Part shown: piece after piece, positions 1 through 9,782 of the stretch | How positions within the stretch are numbered: the stretch's first letter is position 1 | Layout: every line of letters starts with the position of its first letter | DNA from: Candidatus Thorarchaeota archaeon | Lineage (GTDB): Archaea > Asgardarchaeota > Thorarchaeia > Thorarchaeales > Thorarchaeaceae | DNA length: 11,191 nt | Reading direction: 5' to 3' | Assembly (NCBI GenBank): GCA_004524445.1 | Contig: SDNP01000055.1 | Location: 1 to 11,191 of the forward strand | The notes under the pieces: model-generated | Databases searched by the model: none | What the model saw: the letters and a program-made list of their open reading frames with translations, nothing else | Told to the model about the DNA's origin: nothing | Made by a program: the position numbers and the translations under genes

Positions 1-632
1 TCCTCCGTCACGAGGATGTCAGTTTCACTCATTCGTCGCTTATAGCCAATCCAGCCGTATTTTTCTAAAGCAGAAAGCAATGCAATGACTTCATCATCGG
101 AAAGATCAATCAAATCCATAATCTCTGAGACAGTACGTTTCCCATTAATGAAATTCTCAATTTTCTCTAGAGCCTTGTCGGTTGTGCCAACTCGAAATGG
201 GATGGTCTTGCCCTTTTTCTTATAGGGCACCATGGATATATCGGGACGGTCGTAAGGAAACTCTTTCAGAATGGTGAGGGCAAACTCCCTGAACCTACGC
301 ACGTCACCTTCGAATTTTTCCAATTTCGCTCCATGTTTTTCTTCAACTAGCTCCAAGATTTCCTTTAGCTTCTTGCGATAGGGTTTTTCATCCGTAACAG
401 GATCAGCAACAAGCAATACAAGGACGGTTTCGCCTACCTCAATCAAGATGTCATAGGCTGCTTTCCGAATAGTTCGAATGGGAGTCTTGGCAAATATGAT
501 AACAGCAGTAACAAAACCAGCAATGAGATCGGGGTCTACCGTCATGGAGGCATAAGGCAAATTCAGAATGGATTCACCGCCCTCCAGTCTGATTAGTGAT
601 ATGTACCGAACCTTTGAAACATCAGGTCCCAT
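1..632 (-). CDS. Longin-like domain + winged-helix protein, paralog of 722..1567 (3'-truncated by the window edge)
   Basis: Not in the ORF track; translated by hand from the ATG at 632: MGPDVSKVRYISLIRLEGGESILNLPYASMTVDPDLIAGFVTAVIIF...PYRKKLKEI...FEGDVRRFREFALTILKEFPY...IENFINGKRTVSEIMDL...LEKYGWIGYKRRMSETDILVTE. The frame is open to the edge. It aligns without gaps to the first ~125 aa of 722..1567. An alternative in-frame ATG lies at 659, and a GGAGG at 648-644 favours 632. Confidence 0.88.
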   Translation of the reverse strand, partial: MGPDVSKVRYISLIRLEGGESILNLPYASMTVDPDLIAGFVTAVIIFAKTPIRTIRKAAYDILIEVGETVLVLLVADPVTDEKPYRKKLKEILELVEEKHGAKLEKFEGDVRRFREFALTILKEFPYDRPDISMVPYKKKGKTIPFRVGTTDKALEKIENFINGKRTVSEIMDLIDLSDDEVIALLSALEKYGWIGYKRRMSETDILVTE

Positions 633-703
633 CTCGATGTTTCCCTCCTGAGCAAGCATATTTGAATCTGCCACGATATACAGCTCCAATGTAGAATTCC
701 GAT

Positions 704-720
704 AGGGTATAAGACCCTTT
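704..720 (-). promoter_or_regulatory. Possible BRE/TATA element for the downstream longin paralog
   Basis: The minus strand reads AAAGGGTCTTATACCCT, a purine run followed by TTATA, inside a small AGGGT-N5-ACCCT dyad in the gap between the paralogs. Confidence 0.3.
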
Positions 721-721
721 C

Positions 722-1567
722 CTACTTTGTGCCACTGATTCTTAGCACTCCTGTATCTATAAGATTTTTTATGAGGGTTTTGACGACTTCCATGCCGTAG
801 GGAAGCTCATCACAGATATCAGACAAGCTTCGGGTTCCGTCACACAACTCAACAATATGCTCGAGTTGGTTACCGTATACACCTATCAGGAATCTTGGCG
901 GATCAGAAACCTTGACAAGTTTTGAATCCGATTCCAGTTTTTTGCTCAGTGATATCCATTTGTATCTATAGAGCATTGAGAATATTCCCTCTATTTCATT
1001 TTGGTCGTATTTTGATGATTCCATTATCTCCAATATCGATCTCTTTCCATTGATGAAGCCCAGAATTTCTTGGATTTTCTCATCGGTTCGTCCTACACTC
1101 CATGGTATCTTCGCCTTCTGATCAGGCGCGGCCTTGCTGCTTTTCAAAAGCCGCGGCACCAACTCAAGATCAATATCAGAATACGGATAGATGCTCAAAA
1201 TATCAAGTGCATATTCTCTGAACGGTCGTATATCACCCTTCCAATTATTGAGAAGATCGTTATATTTCTCCTCAAAATCTGCAATTATCTTTTTCAAATT
1301 CTTCCTGTATGGTTCATCATCTTCGACTTTGTCCACAATAAGTAAGCCAACCACATGTTCCCCCTCTTCAATCACCACTACATATCCTTCCTTTGTGAAG
1401 GTCTTTAGGTCTCGATTCTCGAAGATGATAATAGCAAGGACAAAGCTAGCTACAAGGTCGGGGTCGACACTCATAGAGCGATATGGTATTCCTAAAATTG
1501 GCTCTCCGCCTGCCTTTCTAACGAGGCTGATATACCGCACCTTATCACTTTCTTCCTGCGAAACCAT
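722..1567 (-). CDS. Longin-like domain + two C-terminal winged-helix domains (281 aa)
   Basis: The N-terminal ~125 aa show the Asgard longin-like pattern (YISLV..GG.PIL, DPDLVASFVLAI, YVVVIEEGEHVVGLLIV, FEEKY..LLNNWKGD...F). Two wH-type repeats follow: ILGFINGKRSILEI...LYRYKWISL and IVELCDGTRSLSDI...LIDTGVLRI. Confidence 0.88.
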   Translation of the reverse strand: MVSQEESDKVRYISLVRKAGGEPILGIPYRSMSVDPDLVASFVLAIIIFENRDLKTFTKEGYVVVIEEGEHVVGLLIVDKVEDDEPYRKNLKKIIADFEEKYNDLLNNWKGDIRPFREYALDILSIYPYSDIDLELVPRLLKSSKAAPDQKAKIPWSVGRTDEKIQEILGFINGKRSILEIMESSKYDQNEIEGIFSMLYRYKWISLSKKLESDSKLVKVSDPPRFLIGVYGNQLEHIVELCDGTRSLSDICDELPYGMEVVKTLIKNLIDTGVLRISGTK

Positions 1568-1605: not shown

Positions 1606-2493
1606 TCAGAGGAAATGCTCTAGTCCTGACTGCATAATGGTTTCAGGTGGAAACTTGAGTTGAGCAAGATCGTACCCCAGGAGTCGCCGTAGGTCCGCTA
1701 TAAATAAAGCAGATTTTCTTTCCACCAAGATATTGCTTCCTTTGACGCCGCAAATTCGGCCATCCAACATTGAATTCTCCATTGATGCATTACTTTCCAG
1801 CCAAGTTAGTGGTTCAGAGGGTAGTGTTTTAAAACCGTAATAGCAGGATAAGTCGATTATCTCGGGGCGCTGGTGAAGCTTGGCAAAGTCCATTTCCTCA
1901 ATCACCTCGAGGATTATCTCTTCCGCGGCTGCTGCATTCAACCTCATAGACATACTTGACTGCTTTCGAGTGCGATGAACAGCATCAGAAATATCAGTCC
2001 TCTTGGCTACAATCCGCTCTGTCTTTCGAGCCTCCTGTCCGCCCTCAACTTCAGCAATGATAGCACCGTAGTCGGCACCCTGCTCTATCCAACGCAACAA
2101 TATCCTACTCATGCTGGAAACGCCCACCTTTATTATATCATTACCAAACAAGGCGAGATACACTCCATAAGGAGTTTCCATGCATTGTTTCTGTCTTTCT
2201 TCATTTGCAAGACATGTATCACCTCGGCACCGGATACAAGGAGAGTACTCATCGAGTCTGGAACAGCCTCGGCAACGGATTTGATTTCTTCTTAGAACGG
2301 AGTCATTCGGACATGGCTGCCATCCGGTGTCTTGGTAATACCCAGTACATCTTCGGGGTCCTGTGATCCTCCAATGGATATTCTTTCCTAGCTGAATAGG
2401 CATCTCCTCTCGGTTGCCATTACTATTCTGAAAATGGAGATACGGTTGAAATCTTCCTTTCAGACTACGCCAACCCGTATCTATAATATGCAT
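1606..2493 (-). CDS. DUF2797 domain-containing protein (Cys-rich zinc-binding region + GIY-YIG-like core), 295 aa
   Basis: Motifs RRCTGY...CP...CRGC...CIRC...C...C and PYGVYLA...IKVGVS...RWIEQGA, with C-terminal GRICGVKG and DLRRLLGY, are typical of DUF2797. Start moved to the ATG at 2493 (MHIIDTGW) to avoid a 95-nt overlap with the upstream gene, which ends at 2504. Confidence 0.85.
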   Translation of the reverse strand: MHIIDTGWRSLKGRFQPYLHFQNSNGNREEMPIQLGKNIHWRITGPRRCTGYYQDTGWQPCPNDSVLRRNQIRCRGCSRLDEYSPCIRCRGDTCLANEERQKQCMETPYGVYLALFGNDIIKVGVSSMSRILLRWIEQGADYGAIIAEVEGGQEARKTERIVAKRTDISDAVHRTRKQSSMSMRLNAAAAEEIILEVIEEMDFAKLHQRPEIIDLSCYYGFKTLPSEPLTWLESNASMENSMLDGRICGVKGSNILVERKSALFIADLRRLLGYDLAQLKFPPETIMQSGLEHFL

Positions 2494-2503
2494 GTATAAA
2501 GCC

Positions 2504-3550
2504 TCAGAAGAATCGAGATGACCCAGGCCCAATTTGCATCCATTCTGTTCCGGCAATGCCCAGATCTGTACCACATTTCGGACACTTGCCTTCTTCATCT
2601 AGATTATTTCTTTTCAGAAATACAGAATATCTTTCAACGGCTTTGAAGCCACAATTTGGGCATATGGTATTTTCATAATCATGACCGGGTATATTACCTG
2701 AGTAGACATACTCCAATCCCGCGTCCTTGGCAATGGTGATGTGGGCTTCTATCACGCTAGCTGGGGTTCGAGGAAGATGGGTTATCTTGTAGGTTGGTGA
2801 GAAAGCAGTGATGTGAAATGGGGTCTTGGAACCAAGATTCTCCACTGTCCAAGTTGCAAGTTCTCTTGTATCATCTCTAAAGTCACCAATTTGGGGAATG
2901 ATTAGATTTGTTATCTCAATGAAGATATTCTTCTGGCTCATGTATTCCATCGCTTCAAAAATTGGCTCAACCTTTGGAACCTCCATATATTCCTTGTAGA
3001 ATCCCTTGTTCCCACTACCCTTGAAATTGACAGACGCTGCATCTAGATATGGAGATATGTAATCGATTGCCTCCCGTGTAAGATACCCATTTGTGACAAA
3101 TGTATTGTACATTCCTTCTTCATGTGCTATTTTTGCAGTATCATGGGCTATTTCCATGAAGATGGTCGGTTCAGTATAGGTATAGGTTATGCCTTGGCAA
3201 TCATGGTCTTTAGCCATGTCCACAATTTCATGAGGCGAGAATTCTCTTCCAACGGGGTGCTCTCTATGGGCACTATGGTAGTTTAGGCAGAACTTGCATC
3301 TGAAATTGCACGACGAAGTGCTGATTGAAAATGTATGCGACCCAGGTGCGAAATGAAATAGAGGCTTCTTTTCCACGGGATCTGCTGCCATCCCATCAAT
3401 TAGTCCATATACTTTAGTATGGAGCATTCCATCCTCTAGATGCCTCACTCGACAAAATCCTGTTTCACCCTCATGAATTACACACCTTCGTGCACAGAGG
3501 TCACATCTCACCCCGCCGGGTATTTCCGAATATAGCCGTGCTTCCTTCAT
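2504..3550 (-). CDS. amrS: AmmeMemoRadiSam system radical SAM enzyme
   Basis: N-terminal VRCDLCARRC...GFCRVR, then DPVEKKPLFHFAPG, the radical SAM motif CNFRCKFC, YTYTEPTIF and FVTNGY. C-terminal YVYSGN...NTICPNCG...CPKCG. All are characteristic of this family. Confidence 0.95.
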   Translation of the reverse strand: MKEARLYSEIPGGVRCDLCARRCVIHEGETGFCRVRHLEDGMLHTKVYGLIDGMAADPVEKKPLFHFAPGSHTFSISTSSCNFRCKFCLNYHSAHREHPVGREFSPHEIVDMAKDHDCQGITYTYTEPTIFMEIAHDTAKIAHEEGMYNTFVTNGYLTREAIDYISPYLDAASVNFKGSGNKGFYKEYMEVPKVEPIFEAMEYMSQKNIFIEITNLIIPQIGDFRDDTRELATWTVENLGSKTPFHITAFSPTYKITHLPRTPASVIEAHITIAKDAGLEYVYSGNIPGHDYENTICPNCGFKAVERYSVFLKRNNLDEEGKCPKCGTDLGIAGTEWMQIGPGSSRFF

Positions 3551-4143: not shown

Positions 4144-5598
4144 CTACTCCGAGTCTTCAATTAGGTCCTCTGCAAGGACCAATGTTTTGTTGTCTCTGAT
4201 ACTGGCAAGCCCCAGATCAACAAAATCATTAGCCCATTGTGAAACAATAGCGGGCGAAACACCAAGCGAGCGGGCTATCTCCCGAATTTCCATTTCTCTA
4301 TTATCTTCAACCATGAGGAATGCTTTGGTCTTCTCTGAAGAAGCCATTAGGTCCAAATATCCATTCAGGCGAGCGGTGGTGGTTTCAGCTTGGTTTTGTG
4401 CCTTTTCCAATTCCAAGCTCAACCGTTGATTACGCGACTGCTCACGGTCCAGTTCAGCCTTCAAGCGCTCAGCTTCTCTCATTATGTCACCGGATTCATA
4501 GTCTCGGACCATGGATCGAAGTTCGTCAATTTCGGAAAATCTCTCCGATGCCTTCTCAAGCTCGGATTTGACGGATGAAAGTTGATTCTGAAGTTCCTGC
4601 TCACTTAGCTCCGTCTTTGCAAGTTTATCCTTTAGTTCAGTAACTGTCTTCTCTGATTGTTTCTGAGCCCTACTTAATTGGGTGATTTCATCTTCAAGTA
4701 GTTCTTTTTCAGTTTCCAGTGCCTTCACGCTTTTGCGAAGGTTCGCAACCATTTCTGTATCAGTGGCGGGCGTTTCCTTCGCTTTACGGATAGCATTTTC
4801 GAGATTCTCATTTCTTGCTTTGGTTGCCGCCAAATTTGTTTGAAGAGCAGTAATTTCAGCTTCTCGATTTTCCAGTTTATCATTGAGCAGTTCGACTTCA
4901 TTCCGTAGACGTCGCAATTGGCGTTCCTGTTCCTCGACTTTCTCTTTCACTTCCTTTGGAATCTCAACTTTAGGCTTCATGCTCACTTCTTTTGAAAGAA
5001 ACTCGATTTCGGTGCCGGCTCTCTGACCGTAGTCATCAATAGAAGCTTTAAGATGGGAAAACTCTTCATTCAGAATTCCAACCGATTCTTTGAACGTATC
5101 AGTTAGGTCGCGTATCTTTTCCAAAATCGGAGCAGACATTCCTGAGGTGAGAGTCGCTTCAATCTCCGAAAATTGTTCATCGCAGATTGATTTTACTGTG
5201 TTCTCAACGAAATTTGCTTGTAAATTTGTTTTTGCCCGTCGTTTGCTTCTACCAATTATATTAGTCTTTAGACCAACTAGGTCACCCTTCAAGCGTACCA
5301 AGAAAGAAAGAACAACTGGGACCAAATCACTCTCTACGCGATCAACAAAGTTCTCGATTTTCATCATGTCGCGTTCAACGAGATTCAAATTCTCTCTGAG
5401 TCGCTCTCTGCTTTTCTCGATTTCCATCTGTCTACGAATCTGTTCAGCAGTTGCAACTTTCACCACATCGCTGGACATTCGTCCTGATTCGACAAGCTCT
5501 TGTCGCATTGCATCATCAACGCCAAGTTCTGACAACATATCATCGACTACTCTGTCCTGATCGTTTCTTGACGGCTTTTTTTCGTTATCTTCTGGCAT
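4144..5598 (-). CDS. Long coiled-coil protein with C-terminal winged helix-turn-helix (484 aa)
   Basis: E/K/L/Q/R-rich heptads over about aa 215-415. The C-terminus KAFLMVEDNREMEIREIARSLGVSPAIVSQWANDFVDLGLASIRDNKTLVL fits a wHTH. No Walker A/B motif and no transmembrane segment. Confidence 0.9.
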   Translation of the reverse strand: MPEDNEKKPSRNDQDRVVDDMLSELGVDDAMRQELVESGRMSSDVVKVATAEQIRRQMEIEKSRERLRENLNLVERDMMKIENFVDRVESDLVPVVLSFLVRLKGDLVGLKTNIIGRSKRRAKTNLQANFVENTVKSICDEQFSEIEATLTSGMSAPILEKIRDLTDTFKESVGILNEEFSHLKASIDDYGQRAGTEIEFLSKEVSMKPKVEIPKEVKEKVEEQERQLRRLRNEVELLNDKLENREAEITALQTNLAATKARNENLENAIRKAKETPATDTEMVANLRKSVKALETEKELLEDEITQLSRAQKQSEKTVTELKDKLAKTELSEQELQNQLSSVKSELEKASERFSEIDELRSMVRDYESGDIMREAERLKAELDREQSRNQRLSLELEKAQNQAETTTARLNGYLDLMASSEKTKAFLMVEDNREMEIREIARSLGVSPAIVSQWANDFVDLGLASIRDNKTLVLAEDLIEDSE

Positions 5599-5704: not shown

Positions 5705-6541
5705 GTGCGTTTGTTCATTGAGATGCAAGCTAACATTGAAAATCGAGACTCAGTTCGTATTAGGGACGGTCGACTCGTCTGGCACATGTTCACGGATATG
5801 GATAACCAGTTCGTTGAAACCATAGATGTGTTTCCGCCAGCGAGGGTTTCAGAGAAGGCCGAGAGGAATATTGTAGCAATCATGAAGGTACCAGAGCTAA
5901 ATCCGGGTGAGAGTTTTTCCCCCACAGTAATCCTCCGAATTGATACAATATCGAGAGACTGGCTCATAGAACCCCAAGAAACACCTGAAGAAATGGTAAA
6001 ACGCGTCCAATCGGGATACTGCAAAATGCAGAAGTATTGGGAACTTGGCGATGACACAGTTCAGGAGTTATCTCAAAGAATAGCCGAGAGAAGCAATAGC
6101 GATGAAGCCTATTCCAGGATTGCAGTGAAGGTAGTAAGAGAACACATGAAACTGAAGACACATCTTGATACCCGTCTAGGTGCAGCCAGAGCCGCCCTAG
6201 AACAAGAGGGCGATTGTGATGAACATGCAGACCTTTTTATTTCACTAACTAGGGCAGTCAGAATCCCTTCTCGGAGAGTCATCGGACATCTATTCAGGGG
6301 AAACCCCGAACCAGAGCCTCATGCGTGGTGTGAGGTTTTTCTAAGAAACAAAGGTTGGATACCAGTTGATCCAGCGTTAGGGCAATTTGGCATCCTGACA
6401 GAAGACTATTTCTCGCGGGTTAGAGAAGGACTGGTTCCAGAGAGACCAACCATTCAGATGAAGATGTCAGCTTCCTCATCAAACCCAGTGGCGATAGAGG
6501 AGAAGGTAAGAATGAGGGTCTTAAGAAATGGCGAGGATTAG
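5705..6541 (+). CDS. Transglutaminase-like (Cys-His-Asp) domain protein
   Basis: Catalytic triad motifs GDCDEHADLF...RAVRIPSR, PHAWCEV and GWIPVDP. GTG start with GAGGT (5693-5697) 7 nt upstream. No signal peptide. Confidence 0.92.
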   Translation: MRLFIEMQANIENRDSVRIRDGRLVWHMFTDMDNQFVETIDVFPPARVSEKAERNIVAIMKVPELNPGESFSPTVILRIDTISRDWLIEPQETPEEMVKRVQSGYCKMQKYWELGDDTVQELSQRIAERSNSDEAYSRIAVKVVREHMKLKTHLDTRLGAARAALEQEGDCDEHADLFISLTRAVRIPSRRVIGHLFRGNPEPEPHAWCEVFLRNKGWIPVDPALGQFGILTEDYFSRVREGLVPERPTIQMKMSASSSNPVAIEEKVRMRVLRNGED

Positions 6542-7269
6542 AGCCGGTTCATTGCCCCTGATTCCTGCAGAGTCGTAAGAAGTTCAGCTCCAAAGTGCCA
6601 GGATGAATGGGTATCAAAAATACAGCACTTCACCTTCGGAAGAAGGTGGGTGTCTAATGCCGACCTTAGTGTTGAAGCGAGACGATGTGTCATCATCTCA
6701 CCATAAGCAGCTACTTGGGGAAGAGATTCCATGAACCGTTTTGTAGTGGAATCCAGAGACCCTGGCTTATAATCACACACCTGCACGGCGTCATCGACTA
6801 TTCTAACTAGGTCAATATGACCGGTTAGATGAAGACGTTCAGACCAGACTGGAACCTCAATTGCTACAGATTTGCGGTCGGCGGTTAGAAAGTCCTTCAC
6901 TATGGTGTGGTCAGACTGATATGATGGGTCTCCACGGTTTCGATGTAATTCCCGAATTCGATCTACTAATTCATCATCAAAAGATATGTGGAGTGCATCT
7001 GCCTTTTCAAGTCGTTTCCGCAATCGAACCTTTACGTGTGGTGGTCTGCGCCTCAATCGCAAGGAGGATGCTCTCTGATAAAATGGGTCACGGAAAAATG
7101 ACTCTGGGGTTTTTCCATTGATGATTTGCGTAAGATGTGCCCATAATGCTGCTGAATCACCCGAATCCTTTCCGAAATCCTGATGGTGCGAACGATTCCA
7201 ATGGAAAGCATAGGCAATCTTGCCATGCTGGAAGTCACATCGGACAATATCGTTGGACCCACTATTCAT
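6538..7269 (-). CDS. PD-(D/E)XK nuclease superfamily protein (RecB-like motif set)
   Basis: Motifs AIEVPVW, LTGHIDLV, CDYKP and QVAAY give the E...D...DxK...QxxxY pattern. Its stop overlaps the convergent transglutaminase stop (6538-6541). Confidence 0.85.
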   Translation of the reverse strand: MNSGSNDIVRCDFQHGKIAYAFHWNRSHHQDFGKDSGDSAALWAHLTQIINGKTPESFFRDPFYQRASSLRLRRRPPHVKVRLRKRLEKADALHISFDDELVDRIRELHRNRGDPSYQSDHTIVKDFLTADRKSVAIEVPVWSERLHLTGHIDLVRIVDDAVQVCDYKPGSLDSTTKRFMESLPQVAAYGEMMTHRLASTLRSALDTHLLPKVKCCIFDTHSSWHFGAELLTTLQESGAMNRL

Positions 7270-8723: not shown

Positions 8724-9185
8724 TTAACATTGGTTCTCTTTGATAAGATTCAGTATAAGTTTGTGAGCGCGTGGAGCATCAGTTACGAAAGGCTTCAGGT
8801 TCGTATTCTTGACAAATTCGATACACTTCACCAGCTCGCTCAGATTCCGACACCAAACTAGATGCCCTCGACACTCTAATTCCCTAATGAGTTGTTTTTG
8901 ATGCCCTTCCATGACCGATTCATTCTCGACCACGACAAGCTTGAGTCCCCGGGTTGTGCATTCAATCGTGGTTCCAGCACCACCCGCACTAACAATTACA
9001 TCTGCGGTTTCATAGGCCCGATTGAGATCCTTTAGGAGGCGAACGTATTTGAAGTTCGTGGGAATGTATCTCCCGGTGCCGATCTGGGCAAGTATTGATT
9101 CGGTGATTGCTCCAGACTCAACTAGGTTGTCCATTTTTCTGATTAGTGCATCAAAATGAGATGTGCCAACTGTCAGAAAGATCAT
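8724..9185 (-). CDS. alg13: Alg13-like UDP-GlcNAc transferase subunit (GT28 C-terminal; PssE/Cps14G-related)
   Basis: Motifs IFLTVGTSHFDALI, AQIGTG, ADVIVSAGGAGT, VVVENESVMEGHQ and LECRGHL. ATGA overlap (9182-9185) with the upstream Alg14-like gene. Confidence 0.88.
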   Translation of the reverse strand: MIFLTVGTSHFDALIRKMDNLVESGAITESILAQIGTGRYIPTNFKYVRLLKDLNRAYETADVIVSAGGAGTTIECTTRGLKLVVVENESVMEGHQKQLIRELECRGHLVWCRNLSELVKCIEFVKNTNLKPFVTDAPRAHKLILNLIKENQC

Positions 9186-9664
9186 AGCAATTGACCTCCG
9201 TAAATAACCCCCGGCAACTTATCCGCAAGAGACTTCCATTGTACCAAGAAGAGCGTAGTTTTTCCCAGCAGGATTTCTCCTGTTTTTGACAAGGACTTCA
9301 CCCGAGACATGCTCTCGATGAACACAGTCTTGATACCCACAGCCCGCGCGGCATAAAAAACTGGAACAGTCATCCCAGTTCCGCAACTGATTACCACACA
9401 AGGTCTGAAGATAAGTAGATAAAAAACCGAAAGGAGAAGTGTTGCAAGGGTTCGTATCGCCGACATTATCCGAGAATCTTCAGGTCGAAGCCTAGGGGTT
9501 AAGACCCGAAGCAGAGTGCCTTCTTGGGCGATTTTGGTTGGTGTAAGCCTGTCCATGAGTCCGACCATGTAGATGTAATGAAATTGTGGTCCGAGAAGAT
9601 CCACAAGTGAGAAAGTCTGGGCCGTGTGACCGCCTCTGCCCAAAACCACACCGATTCGATTCAT
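9182..9664 (-). CDS. alg14: Alg14-like oligosaccharide biosynthesis subunit (PssD/Cps14F-related)
   Basis: Motifs VVLGRGGHT, RPCVVISCGTG..VP, VFIESMSRVKSLSKTG, FLVQW and YGGQLL. The start is either the ATG at 9664 or the ATG at 9682. Confidence 0.88.
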   Translation of the reverse strand: MNRIGVVLGRGGHTAQTFSLVDLLGPQFHYIYMVGLMDRLTPTKIAQEGTLLRVLTPRLRPEDSRIMSAIRTLATLLLSVFYLLIFRPCVVISCGTGMTVPVFYAARAVGIKTVFIESMSRVKSLSKTGEILLGKTTLFLVQWKSLADKLPGVIYGGQLL

Positions 9665-9782
9665 GGTAGGTCCCGAAGTCATTCAAGCTATATCCTGTTC
9701 ATAAGTTGTTCTCTTTTGCCAGCGATATTCTATCTCTGAGATCTTCCGACAGGTTGCCTCCATCGCTGGTTTTCACCAAGCG

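Follow-up and report, generated by a model that had tools for sequence, protein, structure and literature searches.

GATOR1 is a GTPase-activating protein (GAP) that inactivates Rag GTPases and mTORC1 under amino acid shortage; two of its subunits are the paralogs NPRL2 and NPRL3 (Npr2 and Npr3 in yeast SEACIT). In archaea, Liu et al. describe an Asgard family that joins a longin domain to an NPRL2-specific C-terminal domain and occurs "in most Thor MAGs", i.e., metagenome-assembled genomes (Liu et al., bioRxiv 10.1101/2020.10.19.343400). The "NPRL2-like longin domain" is an established asCOG category, used also in PMC9834061. Asgard GAP-type longins, annotated as Folliculin/SMCR8 longin proteins and found mainly in Heimdallarchaeia, have been discussed separately (PMC12290439), and in the bacterial Mfp system, which also includes a Roadblock protein and a Ras-like GTPase, the DUF742 protein MfpC is reported to act as a guanine nucleotide exchange factor (GEF; PMC11343762). 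The subject of the present analysis is a pair of adjacent genes, here called paralog A and paralog B, from Candidatus Thorarchaeota archaeon (assembly GCA_004524445.1). The window, i.e., the whole stretch of DNA analysed, comprises the first 11,191 bases of contig SDNP01000055.1 (C18) in a genome of 2.79 Mb and 64 contigs that is 90% complete.

Judging from the predicted fold of A, the two genes encode paralogous cytoplasmic proteins that share the domain plan of GATOR1 NPRL2/NPRL3, and they are members of the "NPRL2-like" Asgard family of Liu et al. The pair probably serves as a paired longin platform for an Arf/Rag-like small GTPase. Given that report and the asCOG category, the core family assignment was already known; an earlier annotation made from the sequence alone (the first-pass annotation) had implied that an NPRL2-like pair would be novel, which does not stand, the family having been described in Thor MAGs in the 2020 preprint. 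In the literature searched, no mention was found of the strict A–B tandem, of a GTPase-fused paralog of this module, of the Roadblock and DUF2797 neighbours, or of the absent arginine finger. These four features, rather than a new kind of system, are what the locus adds.

Predicted fold and closest structural relatives

An alignment of 24 sequences, assembled from two homology searches, was used to model A with AlphaFold2, yielding a predicted local distance difference test score (pLDDT) of 87.6 and a predicted template modelling score (pTM) of 0.79. When the whole model was compared with the PDB by Foldseek, ranks 1–10 were all GATOR1/SEAC chains, in alignments of 320–370 columns. NPRL2/Npr2 chains scored E 1e-7 to 9e-6 and NPRL3 chains 4e-5 to 7e-5, and the first generic longin in the list, AP2 sigma, followed at E 8e-5. 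Chain identities were cross-checked against profile-search matches for 8adl_S, 6ces_N/7t3a/9v0j, and 8fw5_B, and the chains labelled C are those that we take to be NPRL3 from the composition of their entries. VIA-align, a method independent of Foldseek, aligned yeast Npr2 (8adl_S) with 251 residues of A (5–281) at Z 11.0; the root-mean-square deviation (rmsd) of 11.8 Å reflects a different orientation of the domains.

The same relatives were recovered with the C-terminal module. Residues 130–281, modelled alone (pLDDT 87.9), gave a Foldseek list in which places 1–6 were NPRL2/Npr2 and place 7 was NPRL3 (E 5e-5 to 1e-3, TMq 0.60–0.66), with single generic winged helices appearing only at E >0.07. 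With VIA-align, run exhaustively over 48,161 representative chains, the module matched NPRL3 (8fw5_C) at Z 12.6 over 144 of 152 residues (rmsd 3.8 Å) and Npr2 (8adl_S) at Z 12.0 over 143 residues (rmsd 2.9 Å). The next matches were FAM91A1 at Z 8.7 and, at Z ≤7.5, single winged helices of the type found in RiPP recognition elements (RREs; RiPP, ribosomally synthesized and post-translationally modified peptide). The first-pass annotation had held that matches to generic winged helices, with no preference for NPRL2/NPRL3, would speak against its reading; instead, two independent structure searches ranked NPRL2, Npr2, or NPRL3 first with both the whole model and the C-terminal module.

The N-terminal domain of A folds as a longin, as had been proposed. 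Its topology in the model (Table 1) is that of a longin domain, and VIA-align superimposed 120 residues on Sec22b (1ifq_B) at Z 15.3 and rmsd 2.5 Å, with further matches to VAMP7, Ykt6, Fuzzy, AP sigma, SRX, and TRAPP. A Roadblock/LC7 fold was also considered for this domain and ruled out by the longin order of secondary-structure elements and by the much weaker matches to MglB and Roadblock proteins. The linker that follows contains a strand at residues 137–140 in the model, and P138 is nearly invariant. The winged-helix repeats that were expected after the N-domain are present as two units, each consisting of three helices and two strands in that order; in the first, G174 and R176 are nearly invariant.

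Sequence evidence for a tie to NPRL2

A hidden Markov model (HMM) of the family, searched against 177,635 PDB sequences, found human NPRL2 first, albeit at a marginal E of 8.9e-4, with yeast Npr2 at E 1.1. The alignment pairs query positions 116–211 with NPRL2 residues 152–246, covering the last part of the longin domain, the linker, and the first winged helix, and places the linker of A on the NPRL2 segment VPVFTK. It was to this region of NPRL2 (VPVFTK...LLYYGVVTL) that the first-pass annotation had likened the paralogs, and the profile aligns over that same region. As a single-sequence query against the same PDB sequences, A returned nothing but a chance match to Rab4A (E 1.5).

The second winged helix of A shows sub-threshold similarity to Pfam HTH_47 (E 4e-5) and DUF742 (E 1e-3), and the PqqD model TIGR03859 matches residues 236–255 (E 2.9e-6, 27.1 bits versus a cut-off of 46). 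The motif INGKR..EI in the first winged helix had been put forward as NPRL2-like. It recurs in the second unit as CDGTRS..I and, as the PqqD match indicates, is a general signature of winged helices of the PqqD/RRE type rather than an NPRL2-specific one. The tandem winged-helix arrangement, unlike the motif, is specific to NPRL2.

Conservation of the tandem pair

Four co-directional open reading frames (ORFs) on the minus strand encode, in this order, a radical S-adenosylmethionine (SAM) enzyme, a DUF2797 protein, paralog A, and paralog B. The last of these is open at the contig end. Its likely start is the ATG at 632, preceded by GGAGGG, and its last 68 residues, comprising the second winged helix, lie outside the window on contig C52 (1–207) of the same genome. 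The start of C52 shares the ILVTE codons with the left end of the window (1–17), so that paralog B is intact and merely divided by a break in the assembly. Its full-length ortholog P0125/P0226 has 287 residues.

BLASTP aligned A and B with 44% identity over 210 residues, with one 8-residue gap and E 5e-59. Against the full-length B ortholog P0125, the N-domain of A is 54% identical over 121 gap-free residues, which agrees with the first-pass count of about half over some 120 residues for two adjacent, co-oriented paralogs; identity falls to 34% across the linker and first winged helix and to 13% across the second winged helix. The possibility that one copy is a pseudogene or an assembly duplicate was ruled out, as both frames are open, the two are 44% identical, and each is kept separately in 60 genomes. 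About 89 bp separate the two genes, and TATA-like, AT-rich stretches lie 5' of both, which indicates that A and B are not translationally coupled.

Paralog A was found in 60 of the 61 Thorarchaeia genomes sampled and in each of the 24 high-quality ones. At the loci listed across these genomes, B lies directly downstream on the same strand, and adjacent NCBI locus tags agree with the pairing; the conservation of the tandem, which the first-pass annotation had left to be checked, is thereby borne out. Across Thorarchaeia, A orthologs are 58–69% identical, and the A and B families evolve at an equal rate, both having 70% mean column identity. The closest protein relatives carry the annotation Candidatus Thorarchaeota, and the Asgard setting assumed in the first-pass annotation proved correct. 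Outside Thorarchaeia, just scattered single full-length relatives were found, in other Asgard families. Maximum-likelihood analysis placed A and B in two distinct clades, each with full support, and did not resolve how A, B, and the distant relatives are related. The 44% identity between A and B lies far above their sub-threshold match to NPRL2, which suggests, at the level of sequence, an archaeal duplication separate from that of NPRL2/NPRL3.

A search of 1.8 billion proteins gave only 96 representative clusters at E ≤1e-3; in many of these, the N-domain forms the C-terminus of a very large protein, in some cases one with immunoglobulin (Ig)-like domains. Examples are P0164, P0186, P0181, and P0188, in which an A-type N-domain is found at the C-terminal end of proteins of 1,300–2,800 residues; bacterial Ig-like domains are present in P0186.

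Metatranscriptome contigs from two salt-lake runs of one study match window positions 1010–1547, within gene A, at 99–100% identity. These contigs suggest, as a weak hint, that A is expressed and that a near-identical organism lives in this habitat; the missing cover over B, the DUF2797 gene, and the radical SAM gene carries no weight either way.

Links to small GTPases and Roadblock proteins

A third paralog of about 640–680 residues, present in nearly every Thor genome, matches residues 53–277 of A. In P0142 and P0144, it consists of an N-terminal region of about 110 residues, an intact small GTPase, an acidic linker, and the longin–winged helix–winged helix module. The GTPase is matched by Pfam Arf (1e-19) and also by Roc, Ras, and Gtr1_RagA, and carries the motifs GxGGVGKST, WDFxGQ, and NKQD. 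The third paralog is thus a Rosetta-stone-type fusion of a GTPase with the module that makes up A and B. In the present genome, it is split over two contig ends (C64:45839–46930 and C59:8–604). A further paralog of 644 residues lies on C19:17884–18846 and is 37% identical over its N-terminal 320 residues.

A second association was found in a 26%-identical relative, P0147, which groups with the GTPase-fused clade in the tree (support 94/88) and is encoded in a co-directional cluster with a 275-residue Arf/Ras/Roc GTPase. The cluster (L024:2926–7870) has seven co-directional genes, encoding a 352-residue tandem winged-helix protein, the 275-residue GTPase, a 164-residue and a 217-residue protein, P0147, and proteins of 171 and 102 residues. 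It may represent a self-contained GTPase module in another Asgard lineage. With the family profile, no significant relation was found to the neighbours of 352, 217, 164, and 171 residues.

At the A–B locus itself, the genes beyond the end of B are convergent and lie on contig C52 (L028, 1–2523): a second radical SAM gene (208–1095), a Roadblock/LC7 gene (1040–1468), and a gene for a 332-residue protein (1525–2523). Long Thor contigs and a relative with 93% identity share this gene order. A convergent Roadblock/LC7 gene accompanies the family here, in other Thor contigs, and at the locus of P0135, a 32%-identical single-copy relative; there, the second radical SAM gene is missing, while radical SAM–DUF2797–X, X being the family member, and Roadblock remain. 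The first-pass annotation had asked whether a GTPase or Roadblock gene lies to the left of the window; the Roadblock gene does (C52:1040–1468), and no GTPase gene lies next to the A–B pair. Several Arf/Rag-like GTPases are encoded in this genome.

Conserved surface and proposed role

The strand1–strand2 loop of the longin domain carries an invariant R17-x-x-G20-G21-E22-P23 in A orthologs and R-x-x-G-G-E-S, i.e., GGES without the proline, in B orthologs. Between helices 2 and 3, both families have a connecting motif, W-x-G-D-[IV]-R-x-F-R-E. By longin topology, the two motifs are expected at one end of the domain, the helix-2/helix-3 motif probably beside the strand1–strand2 loop. This loop end, with R17-x-x-GGE-P/S, W109, and G111-D-[IV]-R114, is a candidate conserved surface. 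In GAP-active longin subunits, the strand1–strand2 loop holds the so-called GP motif (PMC12290439); A orthologs have G-x-P (GGEP) rather than GP at this place, and B orthologs have GGES.

In the proposed mechanism, A and B would pair via their longin domains and winged-helix modules, in the manner of NPRL2–NPRL3, FLCN–FNIP, and C9orf72–SMCR8, and the pair would bind and regulate an Arf/Rag-like small GTPase. We infer the heterodimer from the conserved tandem and from the heterodimers formed by all eukaryotic proteins of this architecture. Candidate partners are the GTPase domain present in the third paralog and the Roadblock protein encoded nearby. A prediction of the full-length A+B complex (alignments A2 and A3) scored 0.01 versus a mark of 0.32, with controls not run, a result that says nothing for or against binding.

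Several observations weigh against the paired longin platform or its tie to NPRL2. The Pfam HMMs NPR2 (PF06218) and NPR3 (PF03666) had no match in this genome at E 10 or below. Among the 24 family members, NPR2 touches only two (E 0.16) and HTH_NPRL3 six, its best E of 5.7e-4 falling below the model's cut-off, and the latter model also matches in 6 of 14 control genomes. Membership by Pfam NPR2/NPR3, a check proposed in the first-pass annotation, is accordingly not supported, no match being found at gathering scores. A C-terminal profile without the longin part scored MarR regulators at E 4e-3 versus E 7e-3 for NPRL2. A profile of the longin domain only found nothing significant among the PDB sequences (MON1A, E 0.66), from which it follows that the longin part is not the source of the sequence tie to NPRL2; in structure, the longin domain of A is closer to SNARE longins than to NPRL2. 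No GTPase gene adjoins the A–B pair itself, the co-directional upstream radical SAM and DUF2797 genes point to no known GTPase pathway, and the binding of A to B, like the binding of either to any GTPase, is a prediction.

The catalytic residue is a further point on this side. NPRL2 Arg78, the arginine finger, presumably sits in the strand4–strand5 loop. This loop reads EEG-x-x in A and EVG-x-x in B, with no conserved arginine; at its variable positions, arginine occurs in only one of the eight orthologs inspected per family, and B also lacks the proline of a GP-type motif. The earlier caveat that the arginine-finger loop could not be seen and that GAP activity was unsupported has proved sound, and with no arginine in this loop of either paralog, a GAP mechanism like that of NPRL2 is not expected. 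The pair would more likely act as a GEF, as a scaffold, in the manner of an effector, or as a GAP that uses another residue than as an arginine-finger GAP.

A bolder form of this reading would treat the A–B pair, the GTPase-fused third paralog, and the Roadblock neighbour as a Thorarchaeal forerunner or parallel of the GATOR1–Rag–Ragulator axis, in which a heterodimeric NPRL-like longin platform would control a Rag/Arf-like GTPase docked on a Roadblock protein, with a catalytic mechanism that does not rely on the NPRL2 arginine finger; the co-directional radical SAM and DUF2797 genes might supply the input. Such a scheme is speculative and, on present evidence, rather unlikely. The label "proto-GATOR1" in the first-pass annotation was overstated, as no DEPDC5/IML1-like protein was found and the A/B duplication cannot be tied to the NPRL2/NPRL3 duplication. 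In this 90%-complete genome, Pfam IML1 (PF12257) had no match at E 1 or below, in a search by sequence, not by structure, which again counts against the platform reading.

Alternative explanations

The closest alternative, a variant of the paired longin platform that we consider unlikely, is that A and B each homodimerise, as do MglB and the Lokiarchaeal longin dimer 8yqg, and serve different GTPases, the tandem being a relic of duplication. Prokaryotic Roadblock/longin regulators are typically homodimers, and MglB as well as Asgard Roadblock and longin dimers are among the fold matches; the intergenic gap with its TATA-like stretches and lack of translational coupling, and the low identity of the second winged helices, are also consistent with separate homodimers. 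Against this, tandem order and strand are kept across essentially all sampled Thorarchaeia despite a divergence of about 35–40% per gene, the two families evolve at the same rate, and all eukaryotic proteins of this architecture work as paralog heterodimers (PMC12290439).

Two further alternatives dispense with the small GTPase. In one, the pair is an accessory of the upstream radical SAM and DUF2797 genes: the RRE/PqqD-type winged helices of A and B would capture a peptide or protein tail through strand addition and offer it to the radical SAM enzyme, and the longin domain would have a part in dimerisation or sensing only. The co-directional order radical SAM (zinc ribbon)–DUF2797–longin–winged helix–winged helix recurs here, in other Thor contigs, and at the 32%-identical relative, single winged helices of A resemble RREs (MccB, Z 7.5; PbtF RRE, Z 7.4; TigE, Z 7.2; also LynD and PqqD), and the below-cut-off PqqD match described above fits as well. 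The tandem module as a whole, however, reaches Z 12.0–12.6 with NPRL3/Npr2, versus ≤7.5 with RREs. The upstream enzyme, moreover, is AmmeMemoRadiSam-type, a radical SAM class that is not known to be RRE-dependent. Neither a precursor-peptide gene nor a RiPP-class enzyme was identified, and other family members have no radical SAM neighbours, small GTPases being their fusion partners or cluster mates instead. An accessory role of this kind appears improbable. The other alternative, that A and B are archaeal transcription regulators combining a longin/roadblock-type sensor with DNA-binding winged helix-turn-helix domains, is suggested by sub-threshold Pfam matches within the family to HTH_27, HTH_24, IclR, TrmB, ArsR, and MarR and by the MarR score with the C-terminal profile, which is like that of NPRL2. 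It is very improbable, given that the two winged helices of either family range from acidic to neutral (mean net charge −1 to −3, mean isoelectric point [pI] 4.8–6.1; whole A, pI 4.9), which argues against DNA binding, that DNA-binding regulators score Z ≤6.9 in the fold search versus ≥12 for NPRL2/3, and that the same longin–winged helix–winged helix module is also fused to a GTPase.

Features of the locus and neighbouring genes

The features of the four-gene run are listed in Table 1.

Table 1. Positions of paralogs A and B, their domains, and the two upstream genes in the window
Feature	Position (nt)	Strand	Description
Paralog B	3..632	-	N-terminal ~210 aa; open at contig end; ORF as listed 3-689
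Paralog B, first winged helix	6-185	-	Part of the N-terminal ~210 aa of B
Paralog B, longin domain	252-617	-	Part of the N-terminal ~210 aa of B
Paralog A	722..1567	-	ORF, 281 aa, P0001; longin domain then two winged helices; NPRL2/NPRL3-like architecture
Paralog A, second winged helix	737..895	-	aa 225-277; CDGTRS motif
Paralog A, first winged helix	911..1090	-	aa 160-219; INGKR..EI motif; aligned to human NPRL2 residues 186-246
Paralog A, linker	1091..1180	-	aa 130-159; conserved VP strand leads into first winged helix
Paralog A, longin domain	1181..1546	-	aa 8-129; two strands, helix, three strands, two helices (DSSP of model)
DUF2797 zinc-ribbon protein	1606..2598	-	Pfam DUF2797 E 3.9e-21; conserved upstream neighbour of A
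AmmeMemoRadiSam-type radical SAM enzyme, C-terminal zinc ribbon	2504..3550	-	TIGR04337 294.9 bits vs cut-off 220; first gene of run

The real start of the DUF2797 gene is probably an internal Met codon near nt 2493, since orthologs have 274–297 residues. This gene precedes A at three further loci (L009–L011) and also precedes P0135, and a literature search on DUF2797 found no functional study. The position of the radical SAM gene is kept in L009 and L020; in the latter (L020:3–2837), the order radical SAM (zinc ribbon)–DUF2797–longin–winged helix–winged helix, followed by the convergent Roadblock gene, is kept at only 32% identity (P0135).

Farther into the window are genes for a 484-residue coiled-coil protein with weak Pfam matches only (4144–5598, minus strand), a transglutaminase-like protein (5705–6541, plus strand), and a PD-(D/E)XK nuclease-like protein (6538–7269, minus strand); the first two also adjoin the radical SAM gene in other Thor contigs. 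Adjacent Alg13-like (Glyco_tran_28_C, 153 residues) and Alg14-like (166 residues) genes at 8724–9682 (minus strand) are similar to the two parts of the eukaryote-type UDP-GlcNAc transferase that acts in N-glycosylation.

Comparison with known systems

The bacterial conservon/Mfp systems (CvnB/MfpD Roadblock, CvnC/MfpC DUF742, and CvnD/MfpB Ras-like GTPase) likewise join a fold of the Roadblock/longin superfamily and a winged-helix protein with a small GTPase, and the second winged helix of A has sub-threshold similarity to DUF742 and HTH_47; the DUF742 similarity counts among the pointers to a small-GTPase link. Unlike in A and B, however, the Roadblock and winged-helix parts of these systems are separate proteins, the Roadblock topology differs from that of a longin, and the genes form a single operon that also includes the GTPase and a histidine kinase. 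The FLCN/SMCR8-type GAP longins resemble the present pair in that each pairs with a paralogous longin and regulates Arf/Rag GTPases, and in the glycine-rich strand1–strand2 loop, where GGEP in A compares with the GP motif (PMC12290439). A and B differ from them in having neither a DENN domain nor a conserved arginine finger, and in the GGES of B.

The closest likeness is to NPRL2/NPRL3 of GATOR1/SEACIT. Both systems combine, in the same order, a longin domain, a linker strand, and a tandem winged-helix module; both consist of two diverged paralogs; NPRL2/3 are the best structural match to the whole of A and to its C-terminal module; and the family profile matches human NPRL2 marginally across the linker and first winged helix. 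In contrast to their eukaryotic counterparts, A and B have 281–287 residues versus 380–615 or more and are without the eukaryotic insertions; they fall below the Pfam NPR2/NPR3 threshold, have no arginine at the Arg78 position, and are accompanied by no DEPDC5/Iml1 partner that could be found in this genome. Their distribution (60 of 61 Thorarchaeia genomes plus scattered single copies in other Asgard families) matches that reported for the family by Liu et al. The origin of longin-based GTPase regulators is a question in eukaryogenesis. As a small, soluble, and experimentally tractable pair, A and B bear on whether archaeal longins pair as heterodimers, on the target GTPase, and on GAP versus GEF activity. 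From the perspective of known systems, Thorarchaeia thus carry a compact two-gene version of the NPRL2/NPRL3 architecture, the module of which is fused to a GTPase in a sister gene.

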